Sequence record: PZ445134.1
Length of the DNA stretch: 64,000 nt
Reading direction: 5' to 3' (one strand)
From: a phage
Shown one piece after another: positions 23,808 through 40,254 of this stretch. Both the position numbers and the translations under genes were made by a program. Numbering within the stretch: position 1 is the first letter of the stretch; the number at the start of each line of letters is the position of its first letter. The notes under the pieces were generated by a model. It worked only from the letters and a program-made list of their open reading frames with translations, ran no database searches and was not told the origin of the DNA.

Positions 23808-24110
23808 TTAGATAGATTTAGGCTCTAATTTTATTTTCATGAACTCTGCAAATTGTCTGGCAGTTTTTATGCCTTGTTCATGACATTCAAATGCATCATC
23901 ACAGGGGCTATTTTTGTAATGCTTTGCCATATACTTATAAAATTTTTCAGAATTCTCAACATTTTGAATTTCGAACAAAGTATATACGTTTTTAATCCCT
24001 GATTCCATAAAGTTGTCAAAGTACGGGTCGACATATGCAGTGCCAACTATAGGAGTTGTTGCTGCAAAAAACCCCAGCATCGCCACGATGGCTATCGCTC
24101 TTAAGGCCAT
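23808..24110 (-). CDS. rI: lysis inhibition regulator RI (antiholin)
   Basis: 100 aa; signal/anchor N-terminus and ...DPYFDNFMESGI... resembling T4 RI as recalled; adjacent to tk. Confidence 0.7.
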   Translation of the reverse strand: MALRAIAIVAMLGFFAATTPIVGTAYVDPYFDNFMESGIKNVYTLFEIQNVENSEKFYKYMAKHYKNSPCDDAFECHEQGIKTARQFAEFMKIKLEPKSI

Positions 24111-24122
24111 ATAGGCCTCCTG

Positions 24123-24335
24123 TTAATTTTGGCCAGTATTTATTTTTCGCCTTTGGACGGCCTTAACATCTGCGAGGTATTTTTCCAGCTTGCGCTTGCG
24201 TGTATAATCTGCTTTAGAACCAGTTTGACGGATATCCTCGTTTAAATGAGAAATAGAATGTCCTAATTCTCTTCGGATTTCATCCAATTGGGTTACAGTA
24301 AGATTACGAAGTTGTCTTTCGTTTAATTGCTGCAT
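24123..24335 (-). CDS. hypothetical protein
   Basis: 70 aa ORF. Confidence 0.45.
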
Positions 24336-24362
24336 ATATACCTCTTGGTTAGATATTAGTAT

Positions 24363-24944
24363 TTATAACAACCCTGTCAAATCATTCCAATGCTTCCGGC
24401 ATAATGACACATATCTATCAGTATCACCAATTTCAATTTGACTGCCATCTGTAATTGGAAGTCCGTCTTCCGTGACTCTAGCTACCATTGTGGCCTTTTT
24501 ACCACAATGACAGACACCTTTAAGTTCAACAAGCTTATCGGCAATAGCCATTAATGCTTGAGAACCTTCAAATAGATTACCTTTAAAATCTGTTCGTAGT
24601 CCATATGCCATTACCGGCACATTGTATACGTCAACAATACGACTAAGTTGATACACCTTTTCAGTAGTTAAGAACTGAGCTTCGTCAACAAATACACAAT
24701 GAATATCCTTTTGTGCTGCGGCCCATTTATAGAATTCAAAGATATCCATGTCTTTTGTAATTATATTGGCGTCCTGACGAATACCAATGCGAGAAACGAC
24801 TTCACAGACAGAATCGCGAGTATCAATAGCAGGCTTAAGAACTAATACACCCATTCCGCGTTCTTTATAATTATGCGCAGCAGTCAAAAGAGAAGCAGAT
24901 TTTCCAGCATTCATTGCTGCATAAGTAAAAATTAAACTCGCCAT
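24363..24944 (-). CDS. tk: thymidine kinase
   Basis: 193 aa; P-loop AMNAGKS; C-terminal zinc ligands CHCG...CRKHW. Confidence 0.9.
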   Translation of the reverse strand: MASLIFTYAAMNAGKSASLLTAAHNYKERGMGVLVLKPAIDTRDSVCEVVSRIGIRQDANIITKDMDIFEFYKWAAAQKDIHCVFVDEAQFLTTEKVYQLSRIVDVYNVPVMAYGLRTDFKGNLFEGSQALMAIADKLVELKGVCHCGKKATMVARVTEDGLPITDGSQIEIGDTDRYVSLCRKHWNDLTGLL

Positions 24945-24953
24945 ATCACCTTC

Positions 24954-25139
24954 TTAAAGCGTATTCACATAAGCTATTAATTCGTTTTCTTTCTTATCAA
25001 ACCGGTCAGCAAATTCTTCTTGTTGTTCGGGAGATAGCGGGCCGTATTCATCATAAAAGGTGTTTGCTTCTGCATGCTCATCTAGAAGTTCATGGATAAG
25101 CTCAAACAATTTATCTTTTTGTTCTTTACTCAGACTCAT
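24954..25139 (-). CDS. hypothetical acidic protein
   Basis: 61 aa ORF. Confidence 0.45.
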   Translation of the reverse strand: MSLSKEQKDKLFELIHELLDEHAEANTFYDEYGPLSPEQQEEFADRFDKKENELIAYVNTL

Positions 25140-25309
25140 ATATTAATTTCCAGGAGTTTTAAAATAATTCGCTTTTGCTTAAATATTTCCGTAGTTAAAT
25201 GGTCAGTATCTTTTTGACCGATTCCAATGGCAAAACCTTTATTAACAGCGAGTTCAATTAAATTATCAAGCTCACGTAACACTTCATATTGTAACTCAAA
25301 ACTATTCAT
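25136..25309 (-). CDS. small hypothetical protein (57 aa)
   Basis: hand-translated MNSFELQYEVLRELDNLIEL...; ATGA overlaps at both ends. Confidence 0.3.
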   Translation of the reverse strand: MNSFELQYEVLRELDNLIELAVNKGFAIGIGQKDTDHLTTEIFKQKRIILKLLEINI

Positions 25310-25533
25310 TTTGGTTTACCTTCTTTAACGAAATCGGGATAAGGATAAAATCCTGAATAAAATCCTTCACCTTTATGATTGATGCATCCTTTATTAGAAC
25401 AATAGCACCAATAGTCGAAATCACAAGCCATTTCATCATTACATAAAGCAAAAACTACAGGCCATTCGCATTTTTCGCATTTAGCACCTGTAAGAATTTT
25501 TGTTTGACTCATAGCCATGTCACCTTTAAGCAA
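25306..25533 (-). CDS. cysteine-rich small protein
   Basis: 75 aa with 9 Cys (CEKCEW...CNDEMACDFDYWCYCSNKGC). Confidence 0.45.
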   Translation of the reverse strand: MLKGDMAMSQTKILTGAKCEKCEWPVVFALCNDEMACDFDYWCYCSNKGCINHKGEGFYSGFYPYPDFVKEGKPK

Positions 25534-25736
25534 TATTCTTCTACATGTTGTTTACGGCCTTTCTTATCAATAAAGGTATATTCAACGAATGTTCCGATGT
25601 AGTCTTTATCTACATCATGTGGACTATTAATTGGACATTTGGTACGACAAATGCGTTCCCATTGACGAATAATTACTGCCTTATTCTTTGGGTCATATGG
25701 ATGTGGATAATGTATATTCATAATAATGGTTCCCAA
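25509..25736 (-). CDS. hypothetical protein
   Basis: 75 aa ORF. Confidence 0.45.
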   Translation of the reverse strand: MGTIIMNIHYPHPYDPKNKAVIIRQWERICRTKCPINSPHDVDKDYIGTFVEYTFIDKKGRKQHVEEYCLKVTWL

Positions 25737-26215
25737 TCAACAATCACAATTTCTAGTTTAGTGGAATATGTATCTAAAATCTCTTCGATTATATCCCAGT
25801 TTCCACCACCAATACCTGCACCAATTCTTGGCATATAAATTACAGGCTTTGTTATCTTATTCTTTCCGAATTCATTTAATTCTATTATACAATTCATTAA
25901 AGCAGAGTACTCAAAATTAGGTCCCGGCTCAAACTGTGTATAAAGATTAAAGCAATAAGCTTTATGGGTCTTAAAATATTTTTCATAAACCGAATAAGTC
26001 CCGAGTTTAGACTCGTCTCCGAATTCGGTTTGAAGTTTATCGGCTTCTAAAATTTTTGGATAAGCCTTTGCTAATTGTCCTGCCACACCGGCGCCCATTG
26101 TATGAAAACAATTACACCCATGAGCGATATTATTACCTTTAGAAAACAGGGCGACGATATCGCCCTTGATATAGTTTTTAATCACTTGCTGCAAGTCCTC
26201 TAGTATAAGAGTCAA
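25718..26215 (-). CDS. macro-domain protein (ADP-ribose binding/processing)
   Basis: 165 aa; glycine-rich motifs HGCNCFHTMGAGVAGQLAK and PRIGAGIGGGNW typical of macro domains. Confidence 0.55.
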   Translation of the reverse strand: MTLILEDLQQVIKNYIKGDIVALFSKGNNIAHGCNCFHTMGAGVAGQLAKAYPKILEADKLQTEFGDESKLGTYSVYEKYFKTHKAYCFNLYTQFEPGPNFEYSALMNCIIELNEFGKNKITKPVIYMPRIGAGIGGGNWDIIEEILDTYSTKLEIVIVDWEPLL

Positions 26216-26525
26216 CTAGGCGGTCTACCATAGAATTGCATGCTGCCTTATCTTTAGGTTCCGCCACCGAGCATTCTAATATTTGCCATTTTTTATGATA
26301 TCGTTTAATTAAGGTAGACGCCTTGAACCTACTAGACGCCCCATCTTTTTCTCCGTCTTTATACGCATATAACAATTTTTGTGAAAAATCTACTTTACAC
26401 TCTTGACTTTTACCGCAATAATCAGACGCTGTTCTGTTTGTATACTCCGTTACATCAGTATATGTAGTATTAGCAAGAGCGTTAAATGAAACCAAGCCAA
26501 CTATTAAAGCCAACATTTTGGTCAT
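26178..26525 (-). CDS. secreted small protein (vs position)
   Basis: 115 aa; signal peptide MTKMLALIVGLVSFNALA; four Cys; same length as T4 Vs but identity not verified. Confidence 0.4.
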   Translation of the reverse strand: MTKMLALIVGLVSFNALANTTYTDVTEYTNRTASDYCGKSQECKVDFSQKLLYAYKDGEKDGASSRFKASTLIKRYHKKWQILECSVAEPKDKAACNSMVDRLVDSYTRGLAASD

Positions 26526-27064
26526 TCTTTTATTTCCAGTAGTTTATTTGATTTAAGGTAATTAGCCTTTTCTAGGACTTCAGAAGCATATTTACTTCCA
26601 GCACTTGTCTTCCATCCCGCATTATATGAGGATATAGCCTTTCTTATATCCCCATTATGTATATTTAACCAATAAGAAAATTCGATATAAGCCCATCTGG
26701 CTGAATTAGACCGCTTAGATAGCATTTTCTTAATTTGGGCATCAGTCATATTATAACCAAGCTGGTTAATTCTTGCCCTCATTGTTGGTAGATAATTTTG
26801 GAACATTCCATACGCATGGTGACCTTTCTTATCTTTAAGATTAATACCGGCAGATGATTCCTGCCATAGTATTGCGGCCATTATGTATCCAAGTCCTTTC
26901 TTATGCATATTTTCATGCGTTTTAAATTTTCCATCCTTAGAAAACTGTTCCCCAAACTGATAAGCATAATTCAAGTTATCGAGTTGGACATTACTAAAAG
27001 TATGCTCGGAGCTATGTGCTGATAATGAAAGAGCAAATAGACCAGCGAGTAGTGCTTTTCTCAT
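26522..27064 (-). CDS. lytic transglycosylase-like protein
   Basis: 180 aa; signal peptide; SLT-like ...WQESSAG... AYGMFQ motifs. Confidence 0.55.
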   Translation of the reverse strand: MRKALLAGLFALSLSAHSSEHTFSNVQLDNLNYAYQFGEQFSKDGKFKTHENMHKKGLGYIMAAILWQESSAGINLKDKKGHHAYGMFQNYLPTMRARINQLGYNMTDAQIKKMLSKRSNSARWAYIEFSYWLNIHNGDIRKAISSYNAGWKTSAGSKYASEVLEKANYLKSNKLLEIKE

Positions 27065-27072
27065 GTTTACCT

Positions 27073-27531
27073 CTAGATTTTAATCACTGCTTTAGAAGCT
27101 TTTCCTGGTAGTCGTTTACTGTTAATAATAGCCATTCTGCATTGAAGAGTCTTCATTTTGAACGCTGGATTTTCGCGACAAACTGTAAGTCCTAACCAAA
27201 GATTTCCATCAGTTATTTCTAAACGGCCTGGGCGATATTCAACACCTTCGACAAAATCTTCATCAACATCTGGACGTGCCGGCATTGATAAAAATTCTGC
27301 AACTTCTTTAACATGATTTTTTACTTTACGAAATAATTCAAAAACGTAGTTCTCATCTATTTCTCTCTGGATGGCACGATCTAAGAGATGTTGAGAATAC
27401 TTGATATGAAAGCCTGGTAGTCCAAGAGACTTTGCAGCATCTTTTATACCGGCATTTATTTTGCGGAACTCCGTTTCAAAGATTCGACGGAGTTTATTAC
27501 GGCGGATAAAAACGTCAGAATTGATAGTCAT
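27073..27531 (-). CDS. regB: endoribonuclease RegB
   Basis: 152 aa; close match to T4 RegB as recalled (MTIN..VFIRRNKLRR..FHIKYSQHLLDRAIQREIDE). Confidence 0.85.
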   Translation of the reverse strand: MTINSDVFIRRNKLRRIFETEFRKINAGIKDAAKSLGLPGFHIKYSQHLLDRAIQREIDENYVFELFRKVKNHVKEVAEFLSMPARPDVDEDFVEGVEYRPGRLEITDGNLWLGLTVCRENPAFKMKTLQCRMAIINSKRLPGKASKAVIKI

Positions 27532-27549
27532 TTTGATTTCTCCTCTAGT

Positions 27550-27588
27550 TGACAGGTCTATAGTAACACAACTAGAGGAGAAGTAAAC
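27550..27588 (-). promoter_or_regulatory. early promoter with dyad symmetry (PeSL-like)
   Basis: minus strand GTTTAC, 17 bp, TACTAT; 10-bp arms CCTCTAGTTG/CAACTAGAGG. Confidence 0.5.
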
Positions 27589-27592
27589 TACT

Positions 27593-27808
27593 TTATTGAT
27601 AAAATGGAGTTAAAGCCCAAGATTCTTTAGATACCATATCGGCGAAATGCCTCATCTCTTCGATTTGGCGACGACGCTGGTCAGCGTAGTCTTCTTCGCC
27701 TTCTTCCTTACAATCTTCAAGGTCTTCTTCAAGATACTTTAAGTATTCACTACAAATTTTGTTGACCTTTTCTTGAAAGTCTAATAACCCTGTAATAGTA
27801 GAAGCCAT
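27593..27808 (-). CDS. hypothetical acidic protein
   Basis: 71 aa ORF. Confidence 0.45.
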   Translation of the reverse strand: MASTITGLLDFQEKVNKICSEYLKYLEEDLEDCKEEGEEDYADQRRRQIEEMRHFADMVSKESWALTPFYQ

Positions 27809-28074
27809 TAGTATTTTTCCTCAGGTCGAAATACTGCACGACACGCCCACATGCTGGCTTCTTTTAGATGTTGCTTAGCATACTTAAGAGCCTGCACTGC
27901 ATCCATATCTTCTTTGGTTTGTTGCTCTGATTCATTTTCTTTCAAGATATATGCTTCTTCAATCAGAGCATCAAACATCAATCCAAGACGGACTTCTGCA
28001 TCTTTAATAGCGTTCACTTTACTGATTTTATCGTCGGTATGCGGCTTGTAGCCTTTGATGTCTTCAATCGGCAT
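27808..28074 (-). CDS. hypothetical protein (vs.3-vs.5 interval)
   Basis: track ORF trimmed to MPIEDIKGYK with SD GAGGAA; 88 aa. Confidence 0.4.
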   Translation of the reverse strand: MPIEDIKGYKPHTDDKISKVNAIKDAEVRLGLMFDALIEEAYILKENESEQQTKEDMDAVQALKYAKQHLKEASMWACRAVFRPEEKY

Positions 28075-28288
28075 AAGGAATTTCCTCATCGGTGGCAAGG
28101 TCATATTCGACCAATTGGATAGGCTCATTAATACCATATCCGCGTACAGTGATATCGGTTGACGGATATTTTCCAGTAATATCACCCGTTCTAAAGGCTT
28201 CAATGAATGATTGCTCGCCTGAGCAACTAAACCAGGCGGCAAAACATTTTAAAACATCTTCAGACCCTTCTATAATCAATTTAGCCAT
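28064..28288 (-). CDS. hypothetical protein
   Basis: 74 aa ORF. Confidence 0.45.
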   Translation of the reverse strand: MAKLIIEGSEDVLKCFAAWFSCSGEQSFIEAFRTGDITGKYPSTDITVRGYGINEPIQLVEYDLATDEEIPYAD

Positions 28289-28650
28289 TATAGACTCTCA
28301 GTAAAGGTACGAGCGATAACGTCGCTCTGTTGTTCTGGAGTCAGAGAGTTAAAGCGAACTGCATAACCGGATACACGAATGGTCAGCTGAGGATATTTTT
28401 CCGGATGCTTAACTGCATCTTCCAGAGTTTCACGACGCAGAACGTTAACGTTCAGGTGTTGACCACCTTCAATTTTAACTTTAGGTTGATGTTCAATTTC
28501 AATTTCACGGGCATTCAAACCGTAGAAAATTTCCGGGTCTACAATAGCGTCTTCTTTAAAAGTCTTAGAGACAATAATCCGGGCCTGGGTACCGTCTTCA
28601 AAATAAATAGTGCCTTTATGCGCACCTTCAAGAATTTGATATGCTTTCAT
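28288..28650 (-). CDS. autonomous glycyl radical cofactor (GrcA/YfiD-like)
   Basis: 120 aa; C-terminal [17 protein letters not shown] glycyl-radical motif. Confidence 0.85.
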
Positions 28651-28656
28651 ATAACC

Positions 28657-28965
28657 TCAATTAGAAAATAAATTTATCCAAGTTTTTTCTTTAATCAAAA
28701 ATGGGTCGGAATTAAACGCCATTAAACTTTGAGTGATTAATCCTTTAAATGACCCATCAATAAATTCCATTTTGAAATGCGGAATACTAGTCATCAACCG
28801 TGCATTAGGAGCAGTACAAAGAACCTGCCGACCTGCGAATGGACCTTTAGTCAAACGATATCGTTTAGGTTTAAAATGGTAGATCTCGTAATTTTCTACA
28901 AGAGCCCTTTTATTGCATACTGGGCTGTTATAACAATACTCAAAAACTTCAATAGTGGTCATCAT
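28657..28965 (-). CDS. hypothetical protein
   Basis: track ORF trimmed to MMTTIEVFEY at ATGATGA junction with upstream stop. Confidence 0.4.
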   Translation of the reverse strand: MMTTIEVFEYCYNSPVCNKRALVENYEIYHFKPKRYRLTKGPFAGRQVLCTAPNARLMTSIPHFKMEFIDGSFKGLITQSLMAFNSDPFLIKEKTWINLFSN

Positions 28966-29501
28966 TGCATTCCAATCACAAAAAATTGAGGACGAGCAAT
29001 ACCGCCGATGCAATATTTGCTTTTGCAACAGTGTTGGACTGTTTTAATATGTATGTTGTAAATCTTATCCATATCAGGAGCTTTAATAGGCTCGTCAATT
29101 ATATACAGAATACGAGAAAGCGTTAATCCACGGAATTTAGAACCTTCATTGCCAATAAAACTACGGACAGAATCAGTAAATAAACGGAATCGAATATCGT
29201 CGCTAGAATAACGAGAAAATTCTTTTTTAATGTTGCCAACAGAAATTTTAGCATAGGCTGAAGTATTAGAAAGAACAATAACTGTTCCACCGTCATACAG
29301 CCAATTAACAGCAAAATTAGTTACTGCAGTCGATTTACCCGATTGTCTGCCGCCGTCTAAACGAAGTGTACAGTACTGCTTGAGTACGTCTTCAAATGGT
29401 GGGGCATAACCGTTCTTACAAATTTCTTCTACTCTAGCATCAGAATGGTGTGTAAAAGCATTCATCAGGGATAGATAAGGTCCAGTTAAAAATGTTCTCA
29501 T
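28962..29501 (-). CDS. P-loop protein, unknown function
   Basis: Walker A GGRQSGKST; start at MRTFLTG preferred, but the frame is open a further 39 codons upstream through a GC-rich leader. Confidence 0.5.
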   Translation of the reverse strand: MRTFLTGPYLSLMNAFTHHSDARVEEICKNGYAPPFEDVLKQYCTLRLDGGRQSGKSTAVTNFAVNWLYDGGTVIVLSNTSAYAKISVGNIKKEFSRYSSDDIRFRLFTDSVRSFIGNEGSKFRGLTLSRILYIIDEPIKAPDMDKIYNIHIKTVQHCCKSKYCIGGIARPQFFVIGMQ

Positions 29502-40097: not shown

Positions 40098-40172
40098 TGG
40101 TATCCCGCCCTGGGATCGAACCAGGACCGCAAACTTAGAAGGATCGTATGCTATCCATTACACCAGCGGGAT
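40098..40172 (-). tRNA. tRNA-Arg (anticodon TCT)
   Basis: hand-folded cloverleaf: acceptor ATCCCGC/GCGGGAT, D-loop AATGGATA, anticodon loop CTTCTAA, T-arm CCTGG-TTCGATC-CCAGG, encoded CCA. Confidence 0.7.
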
Positions 40173-40177
40173 GTAGT

Positions 40178-40254
40178 TGGTGACCCCGACCAGATTTGAA
40201 CTGGTAACCTTTCCCTTATGAGGGGACTGCTGCTAACCATTGAGCTACAGGGCC
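40178..40254 (-). tRNA. tRNA with anticodon CAT (Met or Ile2-type), atypical D-arm
   Basis: acceptor GGCCCTG/CGGGGTC with two G-U pairs, anticodon loop CTCATAA, T-arm ACCAG-TTCAAAT-CTGGT, encoded CCA; D-stem pairs poorly. Confidence 0.5.

Follow-up and report, generated by a model that had tools for sequence, protein, structure and literature searches.

A macrodomain gene of a T-even coliphage orthologous to T4 tk.4/adfM and its probable role in counter-defence against DarTG2

Introduction

Phage T4 carries a macrodomain gene, tk.4, with a recently reported role against the host DarTG2 system. When a T4 transposon library was grown on a host carrying DarTG2, only tk.4 came out as significant, its insertions being depleted specifically on that host (HIDEN-SEQ, bioRxiv 10.1101/2025.11.20.689424, November 2025). 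A clean tk.4 knockout was DarTG2-sensitive, and the gene was named adfM, for anti-DarT factor Macrodomain (bioRxiv 10.1101/2025.11.20.689424). T4 without adfA and adfN had remained DarTG2-resistant, which predicted a further factor (PMC11825919), and tk.4 fills this gap. Here the corresponding gene is described from a 64,000-nucleotide stretch of phage DNA (sequence record PZ445134.1; the whole stretch is called the window below). The gene lies on the minus strand of the early region, and its product, a single-domain macrodomain protein of the ALC1/TARG1-like class, is probably a counter-defence enzyme against DarTG2. Because this function is already published for the T4 orthologue, the finding itself is not new.

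Two groups of related enzymes provide the background for a comparison. The first consists of phage proteins. PhiKZ gp104 was independently named AdfM in a 2026 Cell Reports paper, which showed that it removes DarT2-made ADP-ribose from TNTC thymidine in vitro and that the Asn mutant N23A is impaired in activity; the same paper stated that no macrodomain Adf had been reported before (PMC13309987). AdfN (T4 30.3) follows the same strategy in the same phage group as a standalone eraser of DarT-made DNA ADP-ribosylation, but it has an unrelated NADAR fold, acts on the guanosine adducts of DarT1 in defence against DarTG1 and has no action against DarTG2 (PMC11825919).

The second group consists of cellular macrodomains. 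Human TARG1, the antitoxin DarG and SCO6735 of Streptomyces coelicolor all remove thymidine-linked ADP-ribose from DNA (PMC9411070), and they also act on uracil-linked ADP-ribose in RNA (PMC13036486). SCO6735 is more efficient than either of the other two at stripping thymidine-linked ADP-ribose from DNA, and it can rescue cells from DarT, while its Q85A and Q85E mutants are inactive (PMC9411070). For this enzyme a water-mediated mechanism has been proposed, in which the water is positioned by a backbone carbonyl (PMC9411070).

Orthology with T4 tk.4

The window comes from a T-even coliphage. Many sequenced Escherichia phages share 96-98% identity with a 24-kb stretch of it, and 657 phage records match the 1.4 kb around adfM. 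On the minus strand the genes run regB, vs.1, vs, the macrodomain gene, tk.3, a Zn-binding protein, a 57-amino-acid (aa) open reading frame (ORF), a tk.2-like ORF and tk, compared with regB-vs.1-vs-tk.4-tk.3-tk.2-tk.1-tk in T4. The ends of this run are anchored by profile matches of the window proteins (regB to Pfam REGB_T4 at 8.8e-69, tk to Pfam TK at 4e-57).

The window protein shares 83.9% aa identity with T4 Tk.4 over residues 1-155 of both (E 9e-103). In both phages the gene is flanked by vs and tk.3 within the early region that runs from regB to tk, the order being regB-vs.1-vs-tk.4-tk.3. By alignment and gene order, the window gene is the syntenic orthologue of T4 tk.4/adfM: the two correspond over their full length, begin at the same position, have the same flanking genes and share all family-invariant residues. 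They differ at 25 aa and in the start codon, which is GTG instead of ATG, and have 81% nucleotide identity. Downstream of tk.3 the window has the Zn-binding protein and the 57-aa ORF, where T4 has tk.1. Alleles of the window type (95-99% identity) occur in about 150 phage records and those of the T4 type (80-90%) in about 225.

A preliminary description of this DNA, made from the sequence alone, had missed the identity with T4 tk.4. It had placed the gene next to tk, a loose wording, as the two are not adjacent and four small genes (about 770 bp) lie between them. Its proposal that the protein reverses host-imposed ADP-ribosylation matches the role since reported for the T4 orthologue, the knockout of which is DarTG2-sensitive (bioRxiv 10.1101/2025.11.20.689424).

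Gene model and expression

The coding region and the elements around its start are as follows.

25718..26185, minus strand: adfM/tk.4 orthologue, a predicted single-domain macrodomain protein of 155 aa with GTG start and TGA stop (from the ORF, the T4 alignment and the annotation of the closest record)
26186..26215, minus strand: ten-codon upstream extension from a mechanically chosen TTG, outside the gene and within the 3' end of vs (from the T4 TAG stop and the homologue starts)
26196..26200, minus strand: GAGGA, Shine-Dalgarno-like, upstream of the adfM GTG and kept in T4 (read from the sequence, with a presumed function)

When the first TTG after a stop is taken as the start, the minus-strand ORF 25718..26215 translates to 165 aa, the length given in the preliminary description. 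This reading was rejected, as T4 has a stop in that frame and the homologues begin ten codons later. In the nucleotide alignment of the window with T4, the GTG at 26185 aligns exactly with the ATG of tk.4, and in T4 a TAG stop stands in frame directly upstream of that ATG. The closest GenBank record annotates a 468-nucleotide (nt) coding sequence from the same start, that is, 155 aa. Database clusters of adfM relatives are likewise 155 aa long and begin MIKNYIKGD, with homologue starts of the form MI(K/V)xYIKGD. The gene as predicted from these comparisons is therefore 25718..26185 on the minus strand, with a GTG start and a product of 155 rather than 165 aa.

This is a real gene and not a chance ORF, because its product passes the Pfam Macro profile, has relatives in 2,799 phage records and shows a synonymous excess relative to T4 tk.4. 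Of the codons that differ between the two genes, 50 differ synonymously and 25 non-synonymously, a pattern indicative of purifying selection on adfM.

The GTG start overlaps the vs stop by 8 nt, and the GAGGA lies 11 nt upstream of the start in both the window phage and T4. In a search for a dedicated sigma-70-type promoter upstream of adfM, promoter-like sites in 24000-29000 were not above shuffles (13 compared with 16.8 expected). Rfam and tRNA scans of the window returned nothing bearing on adfM. The gene appears to be translationally coupled within the regB-vs-tk.4-tk.3 run. A terminator-like hairpin (AGGGCGATATCGTCGCCCT, then GTTTTCT) is present at 26148..26166 on the minus strand, near the beginning of adfM and inside the first 40 nt of its coding sequence. 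The stretch encodes KGDIVALF and is nearly identical in T4. Terminator-like sites are commoner in 24000-29000 than in shuffles (8 vs 2.7), and the hairpin could be a codon coincidence or an attenuating or processing structure.

Macro fold and class

The preliminary description had assigned a macro domain and named a profile search as the check. That search was run, and the protein scored 28.4 bits on Pfam Macro (PF01661) against a gathering cutoff of 22, with E 1.7e-6 over profile positions 2-117 of 118; the fold matches agree. It also matches PHROG 335, labelled 'phosphatase', at 6.9e-67. An AlphaFold2 model of the adfM protein, built on 52 homologues, has a mean predicted local distance difference test score of 95.1 and a predicted template modelling (TM) score of 0.90, and depicts a single-domain protein with the three-layer alpha/beta/alpha macro fold. 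When this model was compared with the PDB by Foldseek, TARG1 came first (1.9e-10), followed by Poa1p, BT1257 of Bacteroides and the DarGs of Thermus aquaticus and Mycobacterium tuberculosis (Mtb). The E values for TARG1, Poa1p, BT1257 and DarG ranged from 1e-10 to 1e-7, with query-normalised TM scores of 0.67-0.81. Fold matches at E<=1e-3 numbered 143, and all of the 50 listed are either macrodomain structures or designed hydrolases with a sequence match to the query as well.

A family profile searched against PDB sequences gave BT1257 (7.7e-17), TARG1 (5.6e-16), SCO6735 (8e-14), Poa1p (5e-13) and Mtb DarG (7e-13). The ALC1-like set as a whole was matched at E 1e-17 to 1e-10, as against about 6e-4 for coronavirus Mac1, and Foldseek gave the same order. 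ALC1 (CHD1L) itself matches BT1257 at 3.5e-12. The adfM protein is a macrodomain, and it belongs to the ALC1/TARG1-like class rather than to the MacroD, PARG or viral Mac1 types, because its nearest relatives by both sequence profile and fold are TARG1, DarG, SCO6735/BT1257 and Poa1p.

The class assignment bears on a second suggestion of the preliminary description, that the protein processes an ADP-ribose mark made by the phage. The marks in question would be those of the phage's own enzymes Alt, ModA and ModB, which the protein would reverse or edit. Alt and the Mod enzymes modify arginine. T-even phages do encode three ADP-ribosyltransferases (PMC9503650), and an arginine-specific macrodomain, MavL, does exist (PMC10951314). 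The ALC1-like class, however, has been characterised on Glu/Asp esters and on thymine and uracil N3 (PMC9411070, PMC13036486) and is not known to act on arginine, and MavL is not among the PDB sequence or fold matches of the window protein. In addition, the depletion of tk.4 insertions was specific to the DarTG2 host (bioRxiv 10.1101/2025.11.20.689424). The processing of a phage-made mark thus finds no support, and the editing of the phage's own ADP-ribosylation is highly improbable.

Active-site residues

Residue invariance was scored over the 52 homologues, and the columns shared across classes were taken from an alignment of ten macrodomains. Four segments make up the predicted active site.

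26108..26122, minus strand: HGCNC motif (H22-G-C-N25-C), in which N25 is the conserved macrodomain Asn and H22 aligns with Poa1p H23 (homologue and macrodomain alignments)
26078..26098, minus strand: loop 1, MGAGVAG, predicted phosphate/ribose-binding glycine-rich loop (alignments)
25934..25948, minus strand: NLYTQ strand end, with Q84 in the column that holds a catalytic Lys in TARG1 (K84) and DarG (K80) and, in SCO6735, the essential Gln85 (profile and multiple alignment)
25796..25831, minus strand: loop 2, PRIGAGIGGGNW, predicted diphosphate-binding glycine-rich loop, with G126 where TARG1 has D125 (alignments)

Loops 1 and 2 are the two glycine-rich motifs that had been picked out in the preliminary description. 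N25, G31, G33, G122 and G124 are invariant in the homologues and have their counterparts at equivalent positions in solved macrodomains, and G31 and G33 are invariant across the ten aligned macrodomains as well. The invariant residues of the family further include Q84, H22, G23, C26, A35, D49, G62, N80, Y82, P119 and I121. In the HGCNC motif every residue is invariant apart from C24, which comes close (at least 90%), and the N23A variant of PhiKZ AdfM, impaired in activity, bears on this motif (PMC13309987).

The NLYTQ segment aligns with LITK of TARG1 (K84) and FPTK of DarG (K80), and therefore Gln84 is, in the alignment, in place of the catalytic Lys; Gly126 similarly replaces Asp125 of TARG1. 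By analogy with SCO6735, a Gln at the Lys position would be compatible with activity. It provides no argument against activity because both SCO6735 and BT1257 have Gln there and SCO6735 is active.

The similarity to SCO6735 and BT1257 extends beyond this residue (NMIGQ in BT1257). Both have Gly at the position of TARG1 D125, both are standalone proteins without a DarT partner, and BT1257 is the best PDB sequence match to the window protein. The identity is low, however, at 22-31%, and the window protein has HGCNC where these enzymes have HxCND. SCO6735 and BT1257 have 5-6 more residues in the loop that follows the Gln, which in the window protein is of TARG1-like length. The protein also has no counterpart of SCO6735 Lys89 and Lys94, and A32 stands for Lys34. 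Human TARG1/OARD1, the top structural match, resembles the window protein in domain size and in the short loop after the catalytic position, and it removes thymine- and uracil-linked ADP-ribose; its K84/D125 dyad corresponds to Q84/G126 in the window protein.

Poa1p offers a further comparison. H22 and T29 of the H-x-C-N-C-x-x-[ST] motif align with Poa1p H23 and S30, the residues of its mutant structures. In the open literature on Poa1p, no paper was found that gives roles for H23 or S30, so that this comparison draws on the alignment and on PDB titles. It is nevertheless among the points that could favour a small ADP-ribose derivative, such as ADP-ribose 1''-phosphate, O-acetyl-ADP-ribose or an ADP-ribose-based immune signal or toxin, as the main substrate in place of a DNA adduct. 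The database names 'phosphatase' (PHROG 335) and O-acetyl-ADP-ribose deacetylase (relatives in JGI) point the same way, and one comparative-genomics survey has made the case that low-molecular-weight ADP-ribose derivatives are what most phage Macro domains act on (PMC9503650). The names, however, were carried over from the superfamily as a whole, and SCO6735, the closest of the characterised Gln-type enzymes, has DNA, RNA and proteins as its substrates (PMC9411070, PMC13036486). Moreover, the sole reported genetic phenotype of the T4 orthologue is DarTG2 sensitivity, and the gene was the only significant hit on that host. A small molecule as the main substrate is consequently unlikely, while it is possible that such a molecule is turned over as an additional activity.

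Relationship to DarG and PhiKZ AdfM

The DarGs of T. aquaticus and M. tuberculosis share with the window protein the fold and class (Foldseek 4e-8 to 1.6e-7, query-normalised TM 0.73-0.77) and the presumed substrate. They differ from it in having the catalytic Lys80, a C-terminal DarT-binding domain and an operon with darT. The window protein scores 32.6 bits (1.4e-8) on the PADLOC DarG profile. On NCBIfam DarG (NF048014) it reaches 30.8 bits against a cutoff of 250, and the match covers no more than positions 4-146 of the 338 in the model, which represent its macrodomain. The reading of the protein as a DarG-type 'orphan antitoxin' was rejected, since it is below the NCBIfam cutoff, lacks both the Lys and the C-terminal domain, and has vs and tk.3, not a DarT gene, as its neighbours.

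PhiKZ gp104, at about 160 aa, likewise stands alone as a phage macrodomain, and the same function is proposed for it, which in the case of PhiKZ is biochemically established. Unlike the window protein, gp104 is of the DarG type, as it matches Mtb DarG at 9.4e-25, PADLOC DarG at 4.4e-39 (132.9 bits) and NCBIfam DarG with 137.8 bits, and possesses the Lys of FPTK. The two phage proteins are connected by a single BLAST match of 23 residues around loop 1 (pairwise E 6e-4). Membership of the window protein in the same family as PhiKZ AdfM was rejected: the match is restricted to these 23 residues, gp104 groups with DarG, and the window protein has Gln at the Lys position. The name AdfM thus covers two phage macrodomain subfamilies, the Gln-type of T4 Tk.4 and the DarG-like, Lys-type of PhiKZ gp104, and these look like two independent recruitments when their sequences are compared.

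Proposed mechanism

During infection, host DarT2 would transfer ADP-ribose from NAD+ to the N3 of thymidine in TNTC motifs of single-stranded phage DNA and thereby block replication. The phage protein would hold this ADP-ribose with the glycine-rich loops MGAGVAG and GAGIGGGNW on either side of it and cut the N-glycosidic bond that joins ribose to thymine, so that ADP-ribose is set free and the DNA returns to its unmodified state. Catalysis would most likely be Lys-independent and water-mediated, as proposed for SCO6735, with Gln84 positioning the distal ribose. This mode is considered likely because the invariant Gln84 replaces the catalytic Lys, as in SCO6735. The identity of the gene, its orthology, the fold and the make-up of the active site are shown by the present analysis, and the DarTG2 phenotype is taken from the T4 literature. 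It may be inferred from these that the window protein hydrolyses thymidine-ADP-ribose and that it does so by a Gln-based mechanism.

Several points weigh against this interpretation. ADP-ribose hydrolysis by T4-type AdfM was itself inferred from homology only (bioRxiv 10.1101/2025.11.20.689424). The DarTG2 phenotype is known from the T4 allele, from which the window allele differs at 25 residues. The window protein also lacks the longer mobile loop and the Lys34 of SCO6735 (A32 here), both of which are reported to be important for the handling of DNA by that enzyme (PMC9411070). Its H-x-C-N-C...T motif also occurs in Poa1p, a protein whose PDB deposition names it an ADP-ribose 1''-phosphate phosphatase, so that a small-molecule substrate is possible. 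Lastly, catalytically dead SCO6735 still inhibits DarT by direct interaction, and protection need not be purely enzymatic (PMC9411070).

The last point leads to the alternative that protection comes mainly from the binding and inhibition of DarT2, a stoichiometric mimicry of the antitoxin, instead of from hydrolysis of the adduct. The inactive variants SCO6735 Q85A, DarG K80A and TARG1 K84A all inhibit DarT in vitro, SCO6735 most strongly (PMC9411070). Direct DarT inhibitors are also found among the phage factors, namely AdfA and AdfB (PMC13309987). The window protein, however, is a 155-aa single-domain protein with no second domain like the DarT-binding C-terminal domain of DarG. Furthermore, H22, N25, G31, G33, Q84, G122 and G124 are invariant across distant homologues, even in bacterial ones for which the clustering of neighbouring genes gave no DarT partner, which fits an enzyme better than a binder specific to the toxin. 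Inhibition as the main mode of protection is thus improbable compared with hydrolysis of the thymidine adduct.

Bacterial relatives and origin of T4-type AdfM

Scanning a single genome for each species of bacteria and archaea gave 379 relatives of the adfM protein. The best 80 of these are 35-45% identical to it, almost all are about 150 aa long, and 67 have N-[AGL]-Y-T-Q. When the neighbouring ORFs at these 80 loci were clustered, no partner gene recurred at more than 10 of the 80 and the synteny was lineage-specific only; DarT was not searched for by profile, and rare cases may escape the clustering. A standalone macrodomain family of about 150 aa with HGCNC and N-x-Y-T-Q is widespread, being found in Ruegeria and other Rhodobacterales, Desulfobacter, Verrucomicrobia, Hymenobacter and others. 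This bacterial family appears to be uncharacterised.

The HGCNC/N-x-Y-T-Q family is the likely source of T4-type AdfM. On this view, T4-type AdfM resembles a standalone bacterial macrodomain copied into a phage, not an antitoxin of the DarG type that has shed its toxin. The fuller proposal, in which the copy came from this family together with a Lys-independent, Gln-assisted catalysis and was not captured as a DarG, is put forward tentatively, as somewhat less probable than not.

Neighbouring genes

Three genes adjoin adfM or lie close to it.

26178..26525, minus strand: vs (valyl-tRNA synthetase modifier), the upstream gene, whose stop overlaps the adfM start (PHROG 1256, 1.8e-35; 66.7% identity to T4 Vs)
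25509..25721, minus strand: tk.3 orthologue, DUF7202, 70 aa with 3 Cys, whose ATG overlaps the adfM TGA in ATGA (Pfam DUF7202, 2e-38)
25306..25512, minus strand: cysteine-rich protein, 68 aa with 8 Cys (profile match to Pfam Phage_zn_bind, PF23895, 1.6e-28)

The preliminary description had mentioned a flanking cysteine-rich protein of 75 aa. Two mechanically called ORFs of 75 aa are present downstream of adfM, but the direct neighbour, Tk.3, has 70 aa and 3 Cys, while the cysteine-rich protein does exist as the second gene downstream, with 68 aa and 8 Cys. Tk.3 has 100% protein and 96.7% DNA identity to its T4 counterpart. The genes around it are less T4-like, at 54-84% (adfM 84%, vs 67%, tk.2-like 54%). 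Tk.3 is thus an unusually conserved small protein, translationally coupled directly behind the counter-defence gene adfM.

The interval between tk.3 and the tk.2-like ORF, 25136..25512 on the minus strand, contains the 8-Cys Zn-binding protein and the 57-aa ORF, and T4 has tk.1 here. Comparison with T4 proteins revealed no counterpart of the Zn-binding protein in this region. It occurs in 738 phage records, including T2, and the annotated copies are all called 'hypothetical' or similarly uninformative names. The 57-aa ORF, between the Zn-binding gene and the tk.2-like ORF, has no detectable family.

The N-terminus of the window Vs is signal-peptide-like. In T4, vs was the most depleted gene in minimal medium (HIDEN-SEQ preprint, bioRxiv 10.1101/2025.11.20.689424). 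Over the whole 64-kb window, ARAGORN and Rfam detected two tRNA genes only, Arg-TCT and Met/Ile-CAT, at 40098..40254 on the minus strand. T4 has eight tRNA genes in the corresponding region, and the tRNA cluster of the window phage seems reduced.

Implications for T-even phages and the AdfM family

Beyond the published function of the T4 gene, the present analysis adds a corrected gene model, a Gln-type subfamily distinct from DarG and PhiKZ AdfM, and a set of bacterial relatives without a conserved DarT-like neighbour. Because T4-type AdfM carries Gln in a standalone family and not the Lys of DarG and TARG1, mutants of AdfM should be designed around Q84, N25 and H22 rather than around a Lys. 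For the same family, results obtained with PhiKZ AdfM should not be assumed for T4-type AdfM.

T-even phages stack erasers against DNA-ADP-ribosylating toxins, with AdfN for guanine adducts and AdfM for thymine adducts. If T4-type AdfM is a phage copy of the standalone bacterial family with its Gln-assisted catalysis, then, like SCO6735 and TARG1, it may erase ADP-ribose from thymine in DNA, from uracil in RNA and from acidic residues of proteins, and perhaps act on ADP-ribose 1''-phosphate. In that case its protection would extend beyond DarTG2, and the name AdfM would denote two independently recruited and mechanistically different enzymes, one using Gln and the other Lys.

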